DNA of 64,000 nucleotides, from positions 430,368 through 494,367 of the forward strand of contig JAURFE010000001.1 in NCBI GenBank assembly GCA_030827135.1. The letters are read 5' to 3'. The notes beneath the pieces are model-generated. The model had not been told where the DNA came from and searched no databases. It was given only the letters and a program-made list of their open reading frames with translations. This document shows, piece after piece, positions 3,901-60,344 of this stretch (position 1 is its first letter; every line of letters starts with the position of its first letter). The DNA comes from Vicinamibacterales bacterium. Lineage in GTDB: Bacteria > Acidobacteriota > Vicinamibacteria > Vicinamibacterales > SCN-69-37. The position numbers and the translations under genes were made by a program.

Positions 3901-6900
3901 CCGCGGTTGACGAACGACTGCAGCTGGACGGTGGACAAACAGTAGGAGTGGAAACCGGTCCACTCCCAGTCAAGCCGCACCGCGCCGGCTCCGCCGGCGA
4001 CGCTCGACAAGCTCCAGGCGCCGTTGAAGTTCGGGATGCCGTTGCGCTGATAGGTCATCCGCGGTGTCCCGCTGACGAGGCCGTTGTCGACGAGCGCGAC
4101 GATGCCGTCACCCGTGGCCGACCAGGCGGCCGGCGGCGGTGGTGGTGGCACCACCGCGCCAACACCGAACGCGTCTGACAGGATGGGCATTGCCTGCGCC
4201 GCCGCGGCGGACGCCGACAGCCGATAACCCGCGCCATCCCGATCGATCGAGAGGCCGCCAAATGTCGCCAGGCCGGCGGCATCAGTCAGCACCGTGACGA
4301 CGCCATCGAGTTTGCCGCCAGACGGATTAATCGCAATCGCGATCGTCACCTGCACCCCGGGGGCCGGGTTGCCACCGGTCACCGCACGCACGACGACATC
4401 AGGAATCGGGCCACCCGCCAGCGTATTGGCCGGCTGGGTGACGAACGACAACACCGTCGTGGTCGGCGACGGCGGGGCCGGCGGATCGGTCGGCAGCGGC
4501 GTCGCGGGCGGATTGGGCATCGGGTCATTCAGGTCCGGTGTATTCACCGCGAGCGACTGAATGACCGGGGTCACGTCCGTCACCGGATTGATCCCGATGT
4601 TGTCGGTGGGATTGGGATCGACGATACGCAGCGTGATCTTGCCTTCACCGCCGGGCTCGAGCCACAACGTGGTGTTCGAAATGTCGGGATTCGCGGGATC
4701 AAACGTCGTGTCATCCCCGGCCGTCAGGAACGTCGGGTTCAGCACGTTCGCCACGAGCACGGTCTGGGTCTGTGACTTCAGCACGCAGCCATCCGACACG
4801 GGCGTCTTGTACGTCTTGTGGACGACGAGCTGGGTCTTGATCCCGCCGGCCGTCGCCGCCTGATTGGCGATGAACAGGTTCACATTGAAGCTGGCCGTGG
4901 TGTTGCCGTCGTTCCGAATCGTCCACGTCACATCGGTCAGCGAGCCGTTGGAAATGTCGGGATTCGAGATGTCGGGATTCGAGATATCCGGGTTCGAGAT
5001 ATCGGGATTCGAAATGTCCGGATTGGAAATATCAGGATTCGAAATATCCGGATTCGCAATGCGGACGTTTGAGATGTCGGGATTGGAAATATCCGGGTTC
5101 GAGATGTCCGGGTTCGAGATGTCCGGGTTGGAGATGTCGGGATTCGAAATGTCGGGGTTATAGACCTCCGCATTCGAAATATCGGGATTCGAAATGTCCG
5201 GGTTGGAGATATCCGGGTTGGAGATGTCGGGATTCGAGATATCCGGGTTCGAAATATCCGGATTCAGGATAACCGTCGTCGCCAATCCCCCGCTGATCGG
5301 GAGGAAGTCGGCCAGGCCGACTTCAGTCACCGAGACCCGCACCTGTTCCTTCGCGTTGGTGGACGTCGCGTAGACCGTGCGCGTGACCATCGACCTCGGC
5401 GCGACCTTCACATCGACCGACAGCAACAGCGGCTCGGGCGTGGCCAGGCCGAGCTGGTTGAACGACGCACTGCCGCCGACCGGCTGATTCTCAATCGTGA
5501 GGCGGTAGGCCTTCGTCTGATACGTCAGGTTCTGCGCGAACACCACGAAGCCGCGCGGCGTGTCCGTGCTGAGCGGCTTGGTGTTGCCGGGCGAACCCGC
5601 GATCAACCCCATCGTGATGCGGGCGGAATACACGTTCTGATTCCGCATGCCGGTCTGGCCGTCGGCACAGCCGATCCCGCCCGGGGGGGTGTAGTTCTGC
5701 CAGTTGCCGTCCTTGGGCTTCTGCACGTCACGGTTGTCTGTCCACACCGCGTGAAACACCGGCGCGGAGGTATTCGCAGTGTTGTGGATCCAGGTGCCGC
5801 CCGCGTTCTGCACAAACGCCGGCGCGGGCGCCACGTCGATGTAGTCGCCCATGAACGGCACGGTGCCCAACTGGAACAGCGGCAGGTTCGGCGCGTTGAA
5901 CTGCAACTGCTGCGCTGAGGCCCCGGCGGCACCGCGCAGGTTGCCTATCAGGTACTGCGACACCATCGTCGACGCACCGAACACCGGCACGTCGCCCTTC
6001 GGCGCCTGTACAGCGCGTACGTCGATAGTGTGGCGCCGGTCGGCCACCGCGATCGCATCACGCTCGGACACAAACGGACCGAACACCCGCGAGACGTCCT
6101 GACGCAGGTCGTAATAGACGATGAGGAGTCGACCGCCCGAATAGGACATCGACGGCATCATCTGGTGTCCGGGCAGGTCGGTGCCGTCGGGCTTCGAGTC
6201 CACCGCACGCGGCGTGGTCCACACGCCCGGGATCTTCGAGGTGGCGAGCACCACGCGGGCATCGCCAATGAGCGGATCGGATCGCGCCCCGGCGTAGCCG
6301 CGTTCGGTCCACGCCAGATAGACGCGGCTTTCGTCGTCAATCGCGATCGTGGGATACGCGTTGGTGCGGAACCGATCTTCTCCGGTGCCGGAGTCGAACG
6401 GCCGAATCGAGACCAACTGATGCACGTCGCCGTGGCGATGGGCGCGCTGCAGTTTCGGCTGAATCGCGTCGGCCTTCGGGCCGGGCTTGAACTCGTGCAC
6501 CTTCACGGGCTTCTTCGCGACCTTGGCGCTGATGTCGGGCGACACCGTCATGATCGCGTCGGGCGCAGTGGCCGTCAGGCCGAACTGGCGCCATGCCACA
6601 TGCACGGCGCCCGTGCTGGGATCCACCGCGATGGTCGCGCCCTGATTGACCTTGTGCGCCGGGTCGCTGATCTGGACCGGCGTGGTCCACGTCGCGCCGC
6701 AATCGGCCGAGCGCGAGAACATGATGCGCGACTCGATGTCCGACGCGCCGGTCGCGAGGGTCGTCGTCGTGATCTGGGCGTACGCGACATACATCGCGCC
6801 CGCCAGCACCTGCTGCGAGATGGTCTTCGCAATCCCGGGAGTCGGCAACACGGTCGGCGTGCCCTTCGCGGTACGCGTCTCCGTGATTGTCTGCGCGGCG

Positions 6901-35847: not shown

Positions 35848-35915
35848 CCCAATCCCCGCTCCTCAATCCCTCAATCCAAATCCTCAATCCTCAATCCTCA
35901 ATCCTCAATCCTCAA
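35848..35915 (+). repeat. Heptamer array A: degenerate units, then CCAAAT, then (CCTCAAT)x5
   Basis: Five perfect TCCTCAA units at 35881-35915, preceded by cccaatc, cctcaat, ccctcaat and ccaaat. The plus strand is almost free of G. The array sits in the rsmE/kinase divergent gap and ends 8 nt before a TGaTATTCT extended -10-like box. Confidence 0.9.
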
Positions 35916-35938
35916 TGCCTCTGATATTCTCTCCGCAC

Positions 35939-39072: not shown

Positions 39073-39512
39073 CCCAGACCCGCGTGGCGGCGTTGCGGAT
39101 GCTGACGCGCCGCGAGTACACGGCATTCGAGCTCCGCGAAAAACTGCTCAAGAAGGAACATCCCCCCGACGACATCACGGCGGCACTGGAGAGCCTCGCG
39201 GCTGACCGGTTGCTCGACGACCGCCGCGTCGCGATAAGTTTTGTGCGCGTGGCTTCGTCGGTGAAAGGCCGCGGCCGGCTCCGCATTGCCCGGGAGCTCG
39301 AGGCCCGCGGCATCAGCAAATCAATCATCCGCGAGGCCCTCGACACACTCCCGGCCGAGGACGAGGTCGACTCGGTCCGCCGCTTTCTGGAGCGCAAGCG
39401 CCTCCCCCGTCACCTGCCGGCCGCCGACCACCGGCGCCTCTTTGCCCAGCTGCTGCGCCGGGGCTTCTCGGCCGACGTCATCGCCCGCGTCATCAAGGAC
39501 CGCCGTACGTAG
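39069..39512 (+). CDS. recX: Recombination regulator RecX
   Basis: ALRMLTRREYTAFELREKL, helical repeats, and its position immediately upstream of alaS. The GTG start overlaps the pilT stop. Confidence 0.85.
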   Translation: MTQTRVAALRMLTRREYTAFELREKLLKKEHPPDDITAALESLAADRLLDDRRVAISFVRVASSVKGRGRLRIARELEARGISKSIIREALDTLPAEDEVDSVRRFLERKRLPRHLPAADHRRLFAQLLRRGFSADVIARVIKDRRT

Positions 39513-39556
39513 GGCCCGCTGCCGTACGTAGGGCCCGCTGAACGTAGGGCCCGCTG
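39503..39556 (+). repeat. Tandem 19-bp duplication spanning the recX stop codon
   Basis: ccgtacgtagggcccgctg occurs at 39503-39521 and again, perfectly, at 39522-39540. A third partial copy, acgtagggcccgctg, is at 39542-39556. Confidence 0.95.
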
Positions 39557-39598
39557 AACTGTAGCGGGCCTGCGTCAGCCCGTTACAACCCAACGGGC
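39547..39598 (+). terminator. Two consecutive GC hairpins downstream of recX
   Basis: ggcccgct-gaactgt-agcgggcc (8 bp) and gcccgtt-acaaccc-aacgggc (7 bp). There is no U-tract, so intrinsic-terminator function is uncertain. Confidence 0.4.
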
Positions 39599-52027: not shown

Positions 52028-52567
52028 CTAAAACGCTTCAAGAATCGACGTGACCACCGATCGGGAGAAGTTCTGCGAGAGGCGCTGCATCGCGTTGGTG
52101 TTCTGCCCGAAGAACGCGGTGACATCGGTGCCGGTTGTCGTCGACACGTCGTACTCCTCGCGATACTGCAGGGCGGCATTTGACCAGAGCACCTTGTTCT
52201 CGCGCAGGTCCCTGAACTCAAACGACGCCATGACGACCAGCGCCACGCGCGATGCCTGGCTGCCGGTGGTGAACGCCGTGGTATCGAGCCGCACACTCGT
52301 AATCGTGCCGGTCAACACCGCATCCACATTGGTGGCATCCGGCTGAACGGTGTACCGGCCACGGCCTGCGAACTCGCGACGCACGGCGTCGGTCAACACG
52401 CGGTCCAAATCGAATGTCGATGTCTGATTCACAAATGCCGGAACCCCGACAATACGGATGTACTCAGGCAGGAACGAACCGCGGCCGGCCAGCGCGTAGC
52501 CGCATGAGGACGCAGAGACGAGCAGGGGCAGGAGGAGAACCAGCGCCAGACTGCGACGCGCGCTCAT
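52028..52567 (-). CDS. lptE: LPS-assembly lipoprotein LptE
   Basis: Lipobox [10 protein letters not shown], then [20 protein letters not shown]. The start overlaps the leuS stop. Confidence 0.8.
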
Positions 52568-55074
52568 CCCTTCACCACGATGCTGATCGGCTGCTCGATA
52601 CGCGCGTGAATCACCTTCACGACCTGTTTGCCGTCGGTCCATTTCTTCACCTCAGGAGACGCCAGCGCCAGCGCGATGTTCGCCTCCGGTGTCGAGTCGG
52701 CCGGCACGGTGAGCCGTGCGCGGAGCTTGCCGTTGACCTGCACGGGAATCTCAATCGATTCTTCCCGCGCCGCCTCGTCATCACTCACCGGCCAGCCGGC
52801 GGCGACGACTCCTTCAGCATGCCCCATTTGCGCCCACAACTCCTCGCACATGTGCGGGGTGAATGGCGAGAGCATGAGGACCAGGGCCTCGATCGTTTCG
52901 CGCAGGACGGCGGCCGTCTCCACACGATCCACCGAGGCGCGCGGTTCATCATCCACACCCATGGGGCGCACACCGCGCAGCTCGGCGTAGGCATACAGCT
53001 CATTCACGAGTTCCATGAGTGCCGCCACAGCCGTGTTCAGGTGCACGCGGGGGTCGATGTCCTGGGTGATGCGGCGAATGGTGCTGTGCGTCTTCCGCCG
53101 CATGTTCCGGTCGGCGTCGTCGAACGAAAGCCCGGCGACCGGAGGTGCCGGCCGGATGACGTCGGTGCAATGGTCGGCGATGCGCCACACGCGATTGAGG
53201 AACCGGAACGCGCCCTCAAGGCCTGTGTCGGTCCACTCGACTTCCTTCTCGGGAGGCGCCACAAACATGACGTACAGGCGCAGCGCGTCCGCGCCGAACT
53301 GCCGGATCATGTCGTCGGGATCCACGACGTTGCCCTTGGACTTGGACATGACCGCGCCGTGGCGCAGCACCATGCCCTGGGTCAGCAGGCGTGTGAACGG
53401 CTCGTCGATGGTGACCAGACCGATGTCGCGGAACACCCGGCTGAAGAACCGCGAGTAGATAAGGTGCAGGATGGCGTGTTCGACGCCACCACTGTAGAAG
53501 TCCACCGGTCCCCAGTACGCGACCTTCTTCGGATCAAACGGGAGGCCGTTGTTGTGCGGGTCGCAGAACCGGAAGAAGTACCACGACGAGTCCACGAACG
53601 TGTCCATCGTGTCGGTCTCACGTCGCGCCGCCGTCCCGCACTTCGGGCACGGCACATTCACGAACTCCGGCACCTGCGCCAGCGGCGAGTCGCCGCGGCC
53701 GGTGAACTCGGTGATGGTCGGCAATTCGACCGGCAGATCCTTGTCGGGCACAGGCACCATGCCGCACGACGGGCAGTGGATGATCGGAATCGGCGTGCCC
53801 CAGTACCGCTGACGGGAAATGCCCCAGTCCTTCAGCCGGTACTGCACGGTGCCTTCGCCGATGCCACGTGTCGCAGCCTCCGCGGTCATCCGGCGGTTCG
53901 CCTCTGGCCAGGGCAGGCCGTTCCACTCGCCGGACTCCACGAGCGCGCCATCGCCGTCGTACGCCTCGGTCAGCGTGTCGCCATCAAGTGTGCCGCCCTC
54001 GGGCTGCACGACGACGCGTACGGGCAGGTTGTATTTGCGCGCGAACTCGAAGTCGCGCTGATCGTGCGCGGGCACGCCCATCACGGCGCCCGTGCCGTAA
54101 TCGCCGAGCACGAAGTTCGCCACCCACACCGGCACTTCCTTGCCGGTGAACGGATTCGTCACCGTGCGACCGGTGTCGAAGCCTTCCTTCTCGACCTCGC
54201 CCGTCATCCGCGCGGACTTGTCCTGTGCACGGAACTTCGCGGCCTTCGCGCGGAAGCCCGCCGGATCCGGCGATGCCGCCGCGAACTGCTCGACCATCGG
54301 ATGTTCAGGCCCGAGCATCACGAACATCGCACCGTAGATGGTATCGATACGGGTGGTGAAGACTTCAATGTCGCCGAAGCGAACGCGCGCACCCTCAGAC
54401 CGTCCGATCCAGTTGCGCTGCATCGTCAGCACTTTTTCAGGCCACTGCGAGAGCTCTTCTGCGGCGGTCAGCAGTTCATCGGCATACGCGGTGATGCGGA
54501 GGCACCACTGTTCGAGTTCACAGAGGGTGACCGTGGTGCCGCAGCGCCAGCAGCCGCCGTCGACGACCTGCTCATTGGCGAGCACGGTCTGGCAGCTCTC
54601 GCACCAGTTGACGTTCGAGCGCCGGCGGTACGCCAGCCCCTTCTCGAACATGCGGGTGAAGAGCCACTGGTTCCACTTGTAATAAATCGCGTCGCAGGTC
54701 GCGAGTTCGCGTTCCCAGGCGTAGCTGATGCCGAGGCGCTGCAGCTGCCCCTTCATGTGCGCGATGTTCGCGCGCGTCCACGTCTCTGGGTGCAGATTGT
54801 TCTTGATGGCGGCGTTTTCGGCCGGCAGGCCGAAGGCATCCCACCCGAACGGATGCAGCACGTTGAACCCGCGCATCCGCATGGTGCGGGCCATGATGTC
54901 GCCAATCATGTAATTGCGCACGTGCCCGACGTGGGCGTGCCCGGACGGGTAGGCGAACATCTCCAGGCAATAAAACTTCGGCTTGGACGGGTCTTCGGTC
55001 ACCTCGAACGCACGGGTATCCGCCCAGTGCTTCTGCCACTTCTGCTCGATGTCTTGGGGCTTATACGAACTCAC
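52564..55074 (-). CDS. leuS: Leucine--tRNA ligase
   Basis: [10 protein letters not shown] (HIGH-type) and VMSKSKGN (KMSKS) motifs. 836 aa, GTG start. Confidence 0.97.
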
Positions 55075-55083
55075 CCGGCTATT

Positions 55084-56016
55084 TTAGTCTCGAAGTCCCG
55101 AAGTCCCGAGGACGTTGATGGTCGCCTCGATGCCTTCCCGCAGGGCATTGAGGTCGTAGCCGCCTTCCGTGACCACGGCGATCCGGCCGCCACAGAGGCG
55201 GCGGGCGGCGTCACCGAGCATCCCTGAGAGCCGGGCGAATCCCTCGGTTGTCATCCGAAGTCCACCGAGCGGGTCCTTGTAATGGGCGTCGTACCCCGCA
55301 GAGACCAGCACGATGTCAGGCTGGAACGCATCCAGGGCCGGCAGCGCCTGCGCCTCGTACGCCCCCAGCACGTCGTCATCGCCGGCGCCCGCACGCATCG
55401 GCAGGTTCAACGTGAACCCTTCACCCGCGCCTCTGCCACGCTCGGTCTCGGCCCCACTGCCGGGCCAGAACGGGTACTGGTGGCTGGAGATGAACAACAC
55501 GGACGGATCGCTGTCAAACGCCGCCTGGGTCCCGTTGCCGTGGTGGACGTCAAAGTCCACGATCGCGACCCGTGCCGCCCCCTCGGCTCTGAGTGCCGCC
55601 GCGGCCACAGCGACGTTGCCGTAAAAACAGAAGCCCATCGCCTTGTGGGGCTCGGCATGATGGCCCGGTGGACGCACAAGCGCCATCGCCGCTTCCCCGG
55701 TGGTCCATGCATGACGCGCGGCTTCGATCGTCGCGCCCGCCGCAAGCCGCGCCACGTCATACGTCTCCGGGCTCGTATACGTGTCGTCGTCAATCATCAC
55801 CGCGCGATCCGCCGTCGCCTCAATCGAATCGAGATACGCCGCGGTATGGATGCGCGCGAGTTCCTCGCGTGTCGCCATGCGCGGTTCGCGGACGATGCCG
55901 CCACGGGCCGCGAACGAGACCGCGACAGCCTCCAACACTTCGCCACGTTCGATGCGTTCCGGATGGCCGGGCGGAGGACAGTGTTCGGAGAATCTGGGGG
56001 AATACAGGAGGAGCAT
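55084..56016 (-). CDS. Histone-deacetylase-family amidohydrolase (AcuC/HDAC class)
   Basis: PPGHHAEPHKAMGFCFYGNVAVAA, DFDVHHGNGTQ and EGGY motifs. The ATG at 56016 lies 2 nt after the DUF374 stop. Confidence 0.9.
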   Translation of the reverse strand: MLLLYSPRFSEHCPPPGHPERIERGEVLEAVAVSFAARGGIVREPRMATREELARIHTAAYLDSIEATADRAVMIDDDTYTSPETYDVARLAAGATIEAARHAWTTGEAAMALVRPPGHHAEPHKAMGFCFYGNVAVAAAALRAEGAARVAIVDFDVHHGNGTQAAFDSDPSVLFISSHQYPFWPGSGAETERGRGAGEGFTLNLPMRAGAGDDDVLGAYEAQALPALDAFQPDIVLVSAGYDAHYKDPLGGLRMTTEGFARLSGMLGDAARRLCGGRIAVVTEGGYDLNALREGIEATINVLGTSGLRD

Positions 56017-56018
56017 CG

Positions 56019-56729
56019 TTATTGAGGATTGAGGATTGAGGATTGAGGATTTGGATTGGGGGATTGGGGATTGAGGGATTGTTCCAGGCTCCGCAAGGCC
56101 GCTTCCAACTCCAGCCGTCCCTGCTCCACCGTCGCCTCCTCGGTGTTCGCGATGTACAGCGGTTCGCCGATATTGATCGCAATCGTCGCGCCGGGTTTGG
56201 GGATCTGCTGGCGGTCCCAGCTGCGCGCGGTCCACGACGAATCCGCCTCAAGATGAAACGGCACAATCGGATGACCAGTCGCGCCGGCGAGCCACGCGGC
56301 ACCGGGCTGCGCGACGCGAGCGGGGCCGCGCGGGCCGTCGACCGTGAAGGCGACCGGCCGCCCTGCCGCCAACGTGCGACGCATCTGTACCAGCGCTTTC
56401 GCGCCACCACGCGACGAGGAGCCACGCGCCGCGCCGTAGCCGAACTTCGCAATGATGCGCGCGATCCATTCGCCGTCAAAATTTTCACTGGTGATGACGA
56501 CAATGCCGCGGTCACGGAAGTACGGCACACCTTCGAGAATGCGGCCGTGCCAGAAGGCCAGAATCGGCACCTCGCCAACACGTGTGAGCGCGTCCAGGTG
56601 GCCGGCTCCCGTGGCGCGATAGGTCCACGTGCCCGCAAGCGCCTCGATGATGGGCCAGCCGAGGGTGGCGATGGCCGACACCTGCGCCCGTTTCGCCCGG
56701 GACTCACGCCAGGCGGAATCTGCAGCCAT
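56019..56729 (-). CDS. DUF374 / lysophospholipid-acyltransferase-family protein
   Basis: PILAFWHGRILE...SENFDGEWIARI...VAFTVDGPRGP is the DUF374 core. The last 20 or so residues (SLNPQSPNPNPQSSILNPQ) are encoded by heptamer array B. Confidence 0.85.
   Translation of the reverse strand: MAADSAWRESRAKRAQVSAIATLGWPIIEALAGTWTYRATGAGHLDALTRVGEVPILAFWHGRILEGVPYFRDRGIVVITSENFDGEWIARIIAKFGYGAARGSSSRGGAKALVQMRRTLAAGRPVAFTVDGPRGPARVAQPGAAWLAGATGHPIVPFHLEADSSWTARSWDRQQIPKPGATIAINIGEPLYIANTEEATVEQGRLELEAALRSLEQSLNPQSPNPNPQSSILNPQ
56021..56081 (-). repeat. Heptamer array B: on the minus strand CAAT-CCCTCAAT-CCCCAATC-CCCCAAT-CCAAAT-(CCTCAAT)x4
   Basis: On the plus strand, (ATTGAGG)x4 at 56021-56048 followed by atttgg, attgggg, gattgggg, attgaggg and attg. 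It shares the CCAAAT-(CCTCAAT)n core with array A. The array ends 4 nt (aacg) before the HDAC ATG. Confidence 0.9.
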
Positions 56730-58576
56730 CAGGTCCGATCTTCAGGCGCGCACTTGGGCTTGAGCGCCTTCATTTTGCCGTCCACGTAGGTCATCAGGTC
56801 CACCATCTGCACCGGCGCGTTGGTGGAGGCCTGCGCGCCCTTGAGCATGATCGAGCAGAAGGGGCACGCCATGACCACCGTGCCAGCCTTGGTGGCCTCC
56901 AGTTGCTCGAACCGTTCCTGACTGATGCGTTTGCCGGACTCGTGCTCCTCAAACAACAAGCCGCCTCCCGCGCCGCAGCAGAAGGGATTGTCGCCATGGC
57001 GCGCGGGCTCGGTCACTGTCGCACCGAATCGCTCAAGCAGCGCACGAGGCTCGGCGTGCACACCGGCATACCGGCCCAGATAACAGGGGTCGTGGTACGT
57101 CACGTTGTCCTTTTCGCCCCATTCGAGCAGGACGTCGCGGGTCAGTTCCTCGATGAGCGACGCCGAGTGCACAGCTTCGACCTCGTAGCCCATCAACTGA
57201 TAGTCGTGGCCGATCGTCTTCACGCAGTGCGGGCAGGAGGTGACGATCTTCTTGACACCCGCGGCCTTCAGGTCCTCGATGTTCTGGGTCGCCAGCTCCT
57301 GATACATGTATTCGTTGCCGGTGCGTTTTGCGACGTCCCCGGTGCAGCGTTCCTTCGAGAGCACGCCGAACGTCTTGCCGCGGGAGCGCAGCAGGTCAAA
57401 GAGCGAACGCATCGACTTCTGATAGTCGGCTTCAAATGCCCCGGCGCATCCCAGCCACACCAGGTATTCGTGTTTCGTCGGGTCGAACGTCTCAAGCGCC
57501 GCCGACTGCACGAACTTGGCCCGCTGGTCGTACATCAGCCCCCAGATGTTCTGTCGCCGCTCGAGGTTCGTGAACAGGGGCGTCAGGAACTCAGGCGCTT
57601 CGCCGTTGGAGACGAGGCCTCGACGGGCACCGATGATGTTCGGCAGGTGCTCCACGCCGACCGGGCACGCCTGCTCACAGGCGCCACACGTCGTGCACTG
57701 CCAGAGGACGTCCTGGTCGTAGACGTCCAGCAGGCGCTTGTCCATCTCCCCCGCCAGAAGGGCCGCTTCGTTCTGAAGCGGAATCATCTTCGGGTTCAGC
57801 CGCTTCCCCGTGCCAAACGCCGGGCAGTTGTCCTGGCAGCGTCCGCACTCCACACACGAAAACGCGTCGAGTACCGTCTTTGACGGCAGGTCCTTCACGG
57901 TCTCGAGCCCCACCTGCTCCTTTTCGAAATCCAGATTGGGAACGGTCCCGAGAATCGGTGACTTCAGAAACACCGTCGCCGGCGACAGAATCAGGTGGAG
58001 GTGTTTCGAATTCGGCACGAGCACCATGAAGACCAGGATGATGACCATGTGGACCCACCAGTTCACCCGCCCGATGGTATCGGTCTCGTACACGAAACTC
58101 ACGAAGTAGGTCACCATCAGCATCGCGATGAAAAACGCGATGAGCAGCGACTCTTTGGAGACAGTGGCGCCCAGCCCGGCCGGCCGAACAATGCCGCGGC
58201 GAATGGCCAGGCCGCTGATGCCGACCAACACGCCTGCGGCAAACGGCGCCAGCGCCCACTTGTAGACCAGAAACGGCGTGGTGTGGGTGACGTCCACGAG
58301 GCCCAACCCCCGCAGCATCTCCGCTGCGGTGTACCCGCCAAACGCCACGAACCCCCAGAAGACCGCCAGGTGCGCGATGCCTGCAGCCTTCCGAGCCGAG
58401 ATCACCTTTGACTGGAAGATCACCTCGCTGACGAACCGATCCAACCGGGCTCCGAGGTGGTCAAACGTGAAGTTGTTCGGCGCCGCCTGAATCAACTTCA
58501 GCCGCGTGGACATCTGCGCCAGAAACCCCGCCACAAAGGCGACAAATACGATCCGGAATGCCCAGACGTCGTTCAT
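56729..58576 (-). CDS. Membrane-anchored (Fe-S)-binding oxidoreductase (HdrD/GlpC-like, two 4Fe-4S motifs and CCG domains fused to a polytopic N-terminal domain)
   Basis: About five N-terminal TM helices, then CVECGRCQDNCP and CTTCGACEQACP, then cysteine-rich CCG-type segments (LGCAGAFE, TSCPHC, PFCCGAGGG, ACPFC). Confidence 0.85.
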   Translation of the reverse strand: MNDVWAFRIVFVAFVAGFLAQMSTRLKLIQAAPNNFTFDHLGARLDRFVSEVIFQSKVISARKAAGIAHLAVFWGFVAFGGYTAAEMLRGLGLVDVTHTTPFLVYKWALAPFAAGVLVGISGLAIRRGIVRPAGLGATVSKESLLIAFFIAMLMVTYFVSFVYETDTIGRVNWWVHMVIILVFMVLVPNSKHLHLILSPATVFLKSPILGTVPNLDFEKEQVGLETVKDLPSKTVLDAFSCVECGRCQDNCPAFGTGKRLNPKMIPLQNEAALLAGEMDKRLLDVYDQDVLWQCTTCGACEQACPVGVEHLPNIIGARRGLVSNGEAPEFLTPLFTNLERRQNIWGLMYDQRAKFVQSAALETFDPTKHEYLVWLGCAGAFEADYQKSMRSLFDLLRSRGKTFGVLSKERCTGDVAKRTGNEYMYQELATQNIEDLKAAGVKKIVTSCPHCVKTIGHDYQLMGYEVEAVHSASLIEELTRDVLLEWGEKDNVTYHDPCYLGRYAGVHAEPRALLERFGATVTEPARHGDNPFCCGAGGGLLFEEHESGKRISQERFEQLEATKAGTVVMACPFCSIMLKGAQASTNAPVQMVDLMTYVDGKMKALKPKCAPEDRT

Positions 58577-58582
58577 GCAGGA

Positions 58583-58588
58583 ATCATA
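58583..58588 (-). promoter_or_regulatory. Candidate -10 box (TATGAT) 6 nt upstream of the Fe-S oxidoreductase ATG
   Basis: The minus strand reads ctcgaTATGATtcctgcATG. No SD is present. Confidence 0.45.
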
Positions 58589-58600
58589 TCGAGAATCGTT

Positions 58601-58779
58601 GTTATTGAGGATTGAGGAGGGAGGATTGAGGATTGGCAATTGGGAGATTGCTGAATGGAGAGATTGATTGCAGGATTGCGGGGCCCAATCCCCCAATACC
58701 TCAATCAATCCCCCAATCCCCCAATTCCCCAATTGAGCAATTGCCAATCCTCAATCCTCCCTCCTCAATCCTCAATAAC
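58601..58779. repeat. Roughly 180-bp palindrome with perfect 42-bp arms built from heptamer words
   Basis: The left arm gttattgaggattgaggagggaggattgaggattggcaattg (58601-58642) is the exact reverse complement of 58738-58779. The 95-bp spacer is itself an imperfect palindrome centred near 58683-58686 (ggattgcggggcccaatcc). Confidence 0.95.
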
Positions 58780-58790
58780 GCGACAGTGAG

Positions 58791-58796
58791 TACAAT
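58791..58796 (+). promoter_or_regulatory. Candidate -10 box (TACAAT) 6 nt upstream of the pntA ATG
   Basis: gtgagTACAATgactccATG. No SD is present. Confidence 0.45.
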
Positions 58797-58802
58797 GACT
58801 CC

Positions 58803-60344
58803 ATGATCGTTGGCATCGCCAAAGAGGCCATCCCCGGGGAACGCCGCGTCGCAGCCACACCGGACTCTGTTACAAAACTTCAGTCACTCGGTTTCACAAC
58901 GCTTGTTGAATCGGGCGCCGGCCTCGCGGCCGGGTTTGCCGACGATGCCTATGTCACGGCGGGGGCGCGCATCGCGTCCACCGACGAGACCTGGGCGGCA
59001 CACGTCGTCGTCAAGGTCCGCCCGCCACAGGAGGCCGAGGTCGACCGGTTGAGTGCCGGCCAGACACTCATCAGTTACCTGTATCCCGCACAGAATGGGC
59101 CATTGGTAGAGCGGCTGATGGCGCGCGGCGTCACGGCTGTCGCCATGGACCAGGTGCCGCGGACCACCCGGGCGCAGAAGGTGGACGCCCTGTCCTCCAC
59201 CGGCAACCTGTCGGGATATCGCGCGGTGCTTGAGGCGGCCCACATGCTGCAGCGCCCGATGGGCGGCCAGACGACCGCAGCCGGCAAGATCCTGCCGTGC
59301 AAGGTGCTGGTGATTGGTGCCGGCGTGGCGGGGCTTGCCGCGATAGGCGCCGCCCGCGCGCTCGGCGCCATTGTTCGCGCCTTCGACACGCGTCCGGCCG
59401 TGAAGGAACAGGTCGCGTCGATGGGCGCCGAATTCCTGCAGGTGGAGATTGACGAGGACGGCACCGGGCAGGGCGGCTACGCCAAGGAAATGAGCCCCGC
59501 GTTCATTGCCGCCGAAATGGCCTTGTTCGCCGCGCAGGCCAAAGAGGTGGACGTCATCATCACCACCGCCCTGATCCCCGGCAAACGGGCGCCGGTGCTC
59601 ATCACCGCCGACATGGTGCGGTCGATGAAACGCGGGTCAGTCATCGTGGACCTTGCGGCGGAAATGCAGGGCAACTGTGAGTTGACGGCCCCTGGAGAGG
59701 CCGTGACCATCGACGGCGTCACCATCATCGGATACACGGACCTGCCCTCACGACTCGCCCTGCAGGCGTCGTCGCTCTACGCGCAGAACATTGTGCATTT
59801 GCTCGACGAGATGGGCGGCGCGGCCAGGTGCGGGATTGACGAGGCGAATGACATCGTGCGGCCGATGACGGTGGTCAAGGAGGGGGTGCTCTCCTGGCCT
59901 CCCCCTGCGGACGTGGCGCGCTCAACCCCAGCGCGCCCTACATCGCCCCCATCCGCCCAGCCGCGCCCAGCTGCCAAGCCGAGTAGCCACGGGGCCCCTG
60001 CGGGGAATACGTCGTGGACGGTCATTGGTGTGGTCGGAGTGGCGCTGCTTCTGATTGGCCTTGGCGCGCCGCAGAACTTCCTCACGCACCTCACGGTGTT
60101 TGTCCTCGCGTGCGTGATTGGCTACCAGGTCGTCTGGAGTGTGACGCCCGCGCTGCACACGCCGCTCATGAGCGTCACCAACGCCATCAGCGGCATCATC
60201 GTCATCGGGGGCATGTTGCAGATTGGTGGGGGCCTGACGTCCGCGGCCAGCATCATCGGCGCCATCGCCATCTTTCTGGCTGCCCTGAACATCTCCGGCG
60301 GCTTCCTCGTGACCCACCGCATGCTGAAGATGTTCCGCCGATGA
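58803..60344 (+). CDS. pntA: NAD(P) transhydrogenase subunit alpha (dI plus membrane dII-alpha part)
   Basis: MIVGIAKE...ERRVAATP, Rossmann motif [15 protein letters not shown] and C-terminal TM helices. About 513 aa. Confidence 0.95.

Follow-up and report, generated by a model that had tools for sequence, protein, structure and literature searches.

The DNA analysed here is a 64,000-nt stretch of contig JAURFE010000001.1 from a Vicinamibacterales bacterium (the window), and our subject is a tandem array of heptamers, array B, which lies at the junction of two genes of a minus-strand operon and is translated as the end of the upstream one. The operon has four genes in the order CCG-FeS > DUF374 > deacetylase > leucyl-tRNA synthetase (LeuRS), with junctions of -1, 2, and 9 nt. 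The first gene (56729..58576) encodes a CCG / 4Fe-4S protein of 615 aa, and its stop shares 1 nt with the DUF374 start. The DUF374 gene (56019..56729) encodes an LPLAT-like protein of 236 aa (PF04028, E=1e-25) that ends ...SLEQSLNPQSPNPNPQSSILNPQ*. Its stop codon, TAA (56021-56019), is followed by 'cg' and then, from 56016, by the ATG (56014..56016) of the gene for a histone-deacetylase-family protein of 310 aa (55084..56016; PF00850, E=1.6e-90), which therefore starts 2 nt past the DUF374 stop. LeuRS, the last gene (52564..55074), has a GTG start 9 nt past the deacetylase stop.

The DUF374 > deacetylase order is kept in most of 80 related genomes, and the deacetylase start is backed by homologues that align from residue 1 at most related loci. 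NCBIfam has no family for either the DUF374 protein or the deacetylase. An Rfam search of the junction gave no match, and no promoter-like or terminator-like site was found there. No Shine-Dalgarno (SD)-like motif is possible before the deacetylase ATG, as the preceding 61 nt are free of G. Two close relatives of the locus (L001 and L011) are deposited as 'Acidimicrobiia bacterium' metagenome-assembled genomes (MAGs) and another (L080) as 'Bifidobacterium sp.'; these labels are probably taxonomic mislabels or binning errors.

Tandem Repeats Finder calls array B at 56021..56081 as a period-7 array of 8.6 copies (score 76). Read on the minus strand, its 5' part is degenerate (CAATCCCTCAATCCCCAATCCCCCAATCCAAAT) and is followed by four perfect CCTCAAT units (56048-56021, 28 nt), which are the substrate for any slippage; the minus strand from 56110 to 56000 reads ...ctggaacaatccctcaatccccaatcccccaatccaaatcctcaatcctcaatcctcaatcctcaaTAAcgATGctcctc... 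The DUF374 stop is contained in the 3' end CCTCAATAAC, which is common to array B, to two further arrays of the window (C and D, described below), and to relatives L001, L164, and L194. A first-pass annotation of the window had claimed that the array is coding, that it supplies the last 20 or so residues of DUF374, and that its final TAA is 2 nt short of the deacetylase ATG; both the sequence and the open reading frames (ORFs) confirm this, the encoded tail being QSLNPQSPNPNPQSSILNPQ. An earlier true end of DUF374 was ruled out, as no in-frame stop precedes the TAA.

On its sense strand the array lacks G altogether and is free of stop codons in every frame, whereas each antisense frame contains TGA. 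As the annotation had noted, none of the three minus-strand frames is closed within the repeat (ORFs 56019..56729, 55084..56235, and 55820..56707), and the heptamer unit encodes the same periodic peptide, PQSSILN, in each of them. Because the unit length is not a multiple of three, the number of units decides where DUF374 ends. Simulated gain of one unit gives an in-frame DUF374-deacetylase fusion of 550 aa (~60 kDa; ...SSITMLLLY..., with ...SSILNPQSSITMLLLY... across the junction), and loss of two units gives an in-frame fusion of 543 aa. Loss of one unit (300 aa) and gain of two (307 aa) each make DUF374 run ~65 residues out of frame over the deacetylase 5' end, and changes of three units in either direction leave the two proteins separate. 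The predicted outcomes for single-unit gain and loss are thus reproduced exactly. Programmed ribosomal frameshifting was considered as another route to a fusion and rejected, since inspection of the CCUCAAU repeats found no X XXY YYZ slippery site.

Array length and reading frame in the population and its relatives

The exact DUF374 protein is present on at least 22 contigs, and the array within the window's population was examined by anchoring on the flanking genes, so that its state was not presupposed. In 13 independent metagenome assemblies or samples, the 64 nt that separate the anchors show no difference, and every spanning assembly encodes a DUF374 protein of 236 aa and a deacetylase of 310 aa. 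On the same contigs, a non-coding spacer array has gained an 8-nt unit (AATTGGGG) in one of nine assemblies (L175), which indicates that slippage does occur on a population timescale. The divergent-spacer array of assembly L183 has a single-nucleotide polymorphism in its last unit.

Copy number does change among relatives. At the homologous junction of a related lineage, L194 has three units and L195-L199 (five assemblies) have four, with identical flanks. DUF374 of L194 stops at the cassette TAA; in L195-L199 its frame is shifted and it stops three codons further on, at a TAG in the 13-nt spacer (...tca ata act TAG). Judged from these alleles, the difference is a genuine single-unit change that the backup TAG has made harmless. 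The other fixed length differences between relatives are of 15 nt (7+8) or 21 nt, both multiples of three. Slippage at this junction, which the first-pass annotation had thought plausible, is thus supported by the three- and four-unit alleles of the related lineage, whereas array B itself does not vary in the 13 assemblies.

Nine distinct DNA alleles of the junction were collected. Each has one terminating frame (L194 and L195 have two), one frame that would fuse the genes, and usually one that would overrun the deacetylase start by 21-74 codons. In all nine, the frame in use is one that terminates (P~2e-4 under a random choice of frame, an optimistic value for reasons given below). The protein record agrees: the 35 array-tailed homologues are all of 247 aa or less, and every one terminates at the junction.

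Searches for the other two states gave the same picture. The peptide by which DUF374 would be extended after loss of one unit has no match in 5.8 billion protein clusters. A query with the hypothetical +1-unit fusion returned a 310-aa deacetylase as its top match and no near-identical fusion, which would have ranked first. The query did recover three two-domain proteins (P0122, P0148, and P0153), which were checked by frame-resolved tblastn and by pairwise comparison. P0122 comes from an indel-ridden long-read contig whose frame 2 encodes deacetylase residues 1-29 and whose frame 1 encodes residues 40-301, with LeuRS broken up among three frames. In P0148 the reading frame shifts within DUF374, between residues 154 and 158. 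P0153, for which there is no contig, joins DUF374 at about residue 200 to residue 45 of the deacetylase, so that both ends of the junction (including deacetylase residues 1-44) are missing. By these comparisons the two-domain proteins are indel, frameshift, or deletion artefacts that arose away from the junction, and no intact DUF374 joined in frame to an intact deacetylase occurs among the fusion-query matches. The long-read MAG contig behind P0122 (L161, contig_96241_np1212, 428 kb) contains multiple indel errors, and its artefactual 531-aa fusion is deposited in the NCBI/ENA protein sets.

The array-encoded tail and the deacetylase start region

Array B encodes the last ~20 residues of DUF374, and several observations bear on what these residues do. 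The closest relatives by protein identity (92-94%: L002, P0004-6, P0242, and P0244) have no array and end at ...LRSLE(A). In an alignment of 37 DUF374 sequences, conservation ends at L215. The AlphaFold model has its final helix at residues 198-219, with a predicted local distance difference test (pLDDT) score of ~87-94, and the array-encoded coil spans residues 220-236, with pLDDT 46-48 over residues 221-236. A metagenome scan with the DUF374 protein, whose listed matches are mostly relatives of 58-79% identity rather than near-identical alleles, served for the wider survey and for the junction statistics below. Of 134 relatives, 35 have array-derived tails, which come in at least 11 lengths and with differing units (NPQ type, HPP type, and others), and arrays have been both gained and lost among alleles at least 90% identical. 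Since the tail is missing from the closest relatives, lies beyond the conserved sequence, is modelled as coil, and differs between lineages, we conclude from the alignments and the model that it is disordered and dispensable, a by-product of the repeat.

The junction itself is tight with or without an array. The window has TAAcgATG and its relatives have ATGA, TAGATG, TGAcATG, or TAAcATG; in relatives that lack the array, the DUF374 stop abuts or overlaps the deacetylase start. What differs is the predicted structure of the mRNA. In the interval -70..+30 around the AUG, the predicted minimum free energy (MFE) is -3.3 kcal/mol in the window and -31.7 kcal/mol in the array-less L002, whose junction is ...ctggaggccTGAcATG (TGAcATG) and whose deacetylase AUG is predicted to lie inside a stem. 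The comparison extends to 97 homologous junctions, 12 with an array and 85 without; the first classifier of array status was too strict, missing the window itself, and the classification was redone. Mean MFE over the same interval is -9.2 kcal/mol with an array (n=12) and -28.7 kcal/mol without (n=85; p=1.7e-6), and the unpaired probability from -15 to +15 is 0.72 and 0.47, respectively (p=1.3e-5). SD-like motifs precede the start at none of the 12 junctions with an array and at 18% of those without, a difference that is not significant (Fisher p = 0.20).

The heptamer family in the window and in Vicinamibacterales

Array B is not alone. With up to two mismatches allowed, a two-unit pattern, CCTCAATCCTCAAT, has 14 occurrences in the window where 0.22 would be expected, and none of 100 shuffles reaches 14. 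There are at least four CCTCAAT-type arrays in the 64 kb. Array A (35850..35921, plus strand) has the form ..CAATCC-AAAT-(CCTCAAT)5 and abuts the ATG of a Ser/Thr-kinase-like ORF. Array C (58604..58635, minus strand) is part of the CCG gene's 5' leader and consists of CCTCAAT/CCTCCCT units with CCTCAATAAC at their end, and array D (58745..58776, plus strand) is an inverted copy of C that faces a divergent transhydrogenase (PntA-like) gene. All four (A-D) carry CCTCAAT on the sense strand and end 0-35 nt before likely start codons, so that the family pattern proposed in the first-pass annotation, an array immediately upstream of a start codon, holds in the window.

The arrays also share details of their internal structure. 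Arrays A and B have the sub-structure CAATCC-AAAT-(CCTCAAT)n in common, and in both an odd CCAAAT unit stands directly before the perfect run. CAATTGCCAATCCTCAATCCTCCCTCCTCAATCCTCAATAAC is found in both C and D, which pair up as an 81-nt inverted repeat (80% complementary) in the divergent spacer. Because such cassette-specific variant units are shared by A and B and by C and D, the arrays look like copied or homogenised cassettes; this suggests that a 40-70-nt cassette was propagated by copying or gene conversion, and not that each array expanded independently in situ. The divergent spacer between the CCG and PntA-like genes (58576-58810) is almost entirely repeats, with CCCAATCC-type octamers between arrays C and D.

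A second array is read through in the same operon. Three copies of the octamer TCGGGACT (55086..55109, minus strand) encode the last eight residues of the deacetylase, LGTSGLRD*, at the junction with LeuRS, 9 nt before its GTG. The same octamer array is found in L164 (3518-3541).

In related DNA, a survey found 115 arrays of period 7 or 8 in 895 kb, approximately 61 of which are followed by an ORF start within 60 nt, the figure being approximate because gene calling was based on GC content at third codon positions and was crude (array A was put on the wrong strand). Their unit sequences are lineage-specific. At the DUF374/deacetylase junction itself, other heptamers and octamers are found in place of CCTCAAT: L003 has ~14 copies of CCATCCT, and there are further variants in L010, L012, L053, L056, and L202. 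Period-7/8 arrays are pervasive across Vicinamibacterales at ~1 per 8 kb, often as inverted pairs in divergent spacers and often abutting start codons; examples among L003-L160 include L010 4502-4603, L033 7059-7147, L073 345-423 and 2173-2264, L075, L104, L108, and L121.

Two other tandem repeats of the window may be recorded here. The array at 4947-5265, with periods of 15/30/45 and ~21 copies of ATGTCCGGATTCGAG-like units (75-77% matches), is unrelated to the heptamers and probably encodes a pentapeptide-type repeat. The one at 39502-39564 has ~3 copies of a 16-19-nt unit (ACGTAGGGCCCGCTGA-like).

Interpretation and comparison with known systems

We think it likely that array B is a repeat cassette which serves, or is tolerated before, the deacetylase start, that its translation as a disordered DUF374 tail is accidental, and that purifying selection acts on its length. 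The array would be one copy of a dispersed G-free cassette (CCCCAAT/CCTCAAT units, ending CCTCAATAAC) placed in sense orientation directly 5' of start codons in this freshwater Vicinamibacterales lineage. Here, the cassette takes up the interval that separates the deacetylase AUG from the last conserved DUF374 codon (...LRSLE). As the sense unit has no stop in any frame, ribosomes on DUF374 would run through the array to the terminal TAA of the cassette, 2 nt before the AUG. We suggest that the array most likely serves the downstream gene rather than DUF374: a strongly structured, GC-rich initiation region would be replaced by an unstructured, SD-less leader in a genome of 66% GC. Termination next to the AUG is kept, so that translational coupling would be retained, and this would explain why only frame-preserving lengths persist. 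Slippage does alter the number of units, as seen in relatives and in a neighbouring non-coding array, and only lengths that end DUF374 at the junction persist; the fused and overrun states are for this reason best read as mutational accidents removed by selection and not as alternative expression states.

Several points weigh against this interpretation. The nine alleles and the 35 tails are phylogenetically related, which makes the P value optimistic. Look-ups by exact protein are biased, and anchoring on the flanks cures this only partly, as a fused ORF would be invisible to a deacetylase anchor. Consensus assemblies hide minority length variants, so that low-frequency switching within the population could escape. 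Across the order, the sense units are not always poor in G (29 have C>G and 18 have G>C) or free of stops (32 vs 20). The difference in structure at the start is a computed consequence of composition (z ~0.4 vs shuffles) and not a measured effect on translation. Finally, SD-like motifs are rare even where there is no array (18%), and the notion that the array replaces the SD is correspondingly weak.

A doubtful but serious alternative is that the array is a neutral or selfish simple-sequence repeat, which arises by slippage or copying and persists where it does least harm, with no role for the downstream gene. The gain and loss of arrays among closely similar alleles (90% identity or more), the lineage-specific and heterogeneous units, and the 85 of 97 homologous junctions that work without an array are all consistent with this. 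Heptamer repeats are over-represented in several large high-GC genomes and have been attributed to polymerase slippage, as relayed in two papers that cite Mrazek et al. (PMC4692102, PMC4679880), which favours the same view. Against it, position and orientation are strongly biased to directly 5' of start codons, the differing heptamers at one and the same junction (L003, L010, L012, L053, L056, and L202) suggest recurrent retention, and the predicted effect on the accessibility of the start site is large and consistent.

It is distinctly improbable that the antisense, G-rich strand (ATTGAGG/ATTGGGG) is what matters, as a G-quadruplex (G4)-type or protein-binding DNA element for transcription or replication of the kind suggested for GGGGATT and GGGAATC. 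In its favour, array B has degenerate units complementary to GGGGATT, the same rule of strand and position (non-coding strand, no more than 50 bp upstream of ORFs) is reported for Nostoc and Xanthomonas (PMC4692102), and a two-tetrad G4 pattern is present. The G-runs of the antisense strand are, however, GG x5, GGGGG, GGGG, and GGG, fewer than the four tracts of at least three G that a canonical G4 would need; the perfect unit, ATTGAGG, breaks the G-run, and the array is internal to an operon, no promoter-like site being near it.

A bolder extension of the favoured interpretation, to which we attach very little probability, is that the cassette is a copy-and-paste, SD-independent leader used across Vicinamibacterales whose slippage-prone length, at operon junctions such as DUF374>deacetylase, forms a heritable three-state gate for the downstream gene (coupled, fused, or occluded by overrunning ribosomes). 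Its alternative states would then be confined to minority sub-populations, which consensus assemblies fail to reveal.

The first-pass annotation had proposed that the junction could act as a frame switch. Slipped-strand changes in unit number would then work as a heritable and reversible contingency switch that moves the genes among the separate, fused, and overrun states. The arithmetic on which this rests is exact in simulation, there are four perfect units of a length not divisible by three, and most array-bearing relatives do have one of three frames that would fuse the genes. Real polymorphism of one unit exists at the homologous junction (L194 vs L195-L199), and a non-coding array of the same population has changed by one unit. 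Nevertheless, we consider a switch very unlikely. None of 13 assemblies varies, none of 35 tails and none of nine DNA alleles is in a non-terminating frame, the -1 extension peptide was not found, there is no near-identical fusion, and the two-domain proteins are artefacts from away from the junction. The sole natural single-unit change is neutralised by a backup stop. The operon, which includes LeuRS, is of a housekeeping and not of a surface or restriction-modification type, and four units make a short tract next to known phase-variable loci. The annotation had held that the proposal would fall if copy number were invariant in populations and in relatives and if no fusion architecture existed in databases; copy number proves invariant in the population and variable among relatives, and the architecture is present in databases only as artefacts.

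It is scarcely credible that the tail was selected as a working extension of DUF374, for instance as a flexible linker or as a motif for interaction or localisation: such tails do recur in 35 of 134 relatives, all three unit frames give the periodic peptide PQSSILN, and tandem repeats are known to create new disordered regions in Borg proteins (PMC9879509), but this tail is missing from the closest relatives, is conserved in neither sequence nor length, is a low-confidence coil in the model, and has a peptide dictated by a DNA repeat that is also present in non-coding leaders.

If the cassette interpretation is true, the junction is a clean natural example of a regulatory or structural DNA repeat that invaded a tight operon junction and became coding by accident, and it shows selection policing the length of a repeat whose units do not fit the codon. 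It would extend start-codon-proximal heptamer arrays from cyanobacteria, Xanthomonas, and Beggiatoaceae to Acidobacteriota. The paired junctions with and without an array provide a testable hypothesis, namely that arrays open the initiation region in a 66% GC genome. There are also two warnings for annotation: low-complexity C-terminal tails such as ...SSILNPQ in this clade would be repeat read-through, and DUF374-deacetylase "fusions" in databases appear to be assembly or frameshift artefacts.

The closest match among known systems is the set described by Rehm et al. in 2015, the heptameric GGGGA(T/C)T repeats of Nostoc PCC 7120 (the cyanobacterial short tandemly repeated repetitive, or STRR, type) and GGGAATC of Xanthomonas (PMC4692102). 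Those repeats, like the ones here, are dispersed 7-nt tandem arrays whose G-rich strand is non-coding and which lie no more than ~50 bp upstream of ORFs; there are cases that overlap stop codons and cases that form inverted pairs, and length varies extensively between close relatives (PMC4692102). Nostoc GGGGATT and the CCCCAAT units of array B's degenerate stretch are exact complements, and the perfect CCTCAAT is one base off. The differences are that the phylum here is Acidobacteriota, and that the dominant unit CCTCAAT (complement ATTGAGG) breaks the G-run, so that no canonical G4 is predicted. The Nostoc and Xanthomonas repeats are reported to be under-represented between divergent ORFs (PMC4692102), whereas two arrays of the window occupy a divergent spacer. 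Read-through of an array as a protein tail, with the constraint on frame that this brings, is not described in PMC4692102.

A second parallel is the TAACTGA direct repeat of marine Beggiatoaceae, for which MacGregor (2015) proposed a role in translation initiation or its regulation (PMC4679880). These too are heptamers in forward orientation, most of them ending one to a few nucleotides before a start codon and usually without an SD. Their downstream genes, ribosomal operons included, show no functional pattern, and 14 sets overlap an upstream ORF at its end (PMC4679880). The unit sequences and taxa are unrelated, and the units of array B resemble neither TAACTGA nor GGGAATC. A further difference is that TAACTGA has stops in all three forward frames and always ends the upstream ORF, so that frame is not an issue; CCTCAAT has none, so that the upstream ORF has to read the whole array and only one frame meets the terminal TAA.

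Phase-variable loci with tetra- or heptanucleotide repeats, as in Haemophilus influenzae (PMC2651432, PMC8262952), resemble the junction in that the unit is not a multiple of three, a change in unit number alters the frame, and slippage is possible. They differ in that here there are no alternative states among the genomes, only four perfect units, and a housekeeping operon, and in that the repeat stands at the 3' end of a gene and not near a 5' end or in a promoter. In Borg proteins, fast-evolving DNA tandem repeats likewise add low-complexity, disordered segments; these regions are themselves reported to be under strong selection (PMC9879509), whereas here the unit is of 7 nt, the peptide appears incidental, and the repeat is found outside coding sequence as well. 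Lastly, the junction resembles translationally coupled ones (for instance ATGA or TGAnATG), with the upstream stop 2 nt before the AUG and neither promoter nor terminator between the genes. It departs from them in that the upstream cistron ends in ~60 nt of non-conserved repeat array and not in conserved coding sequence.

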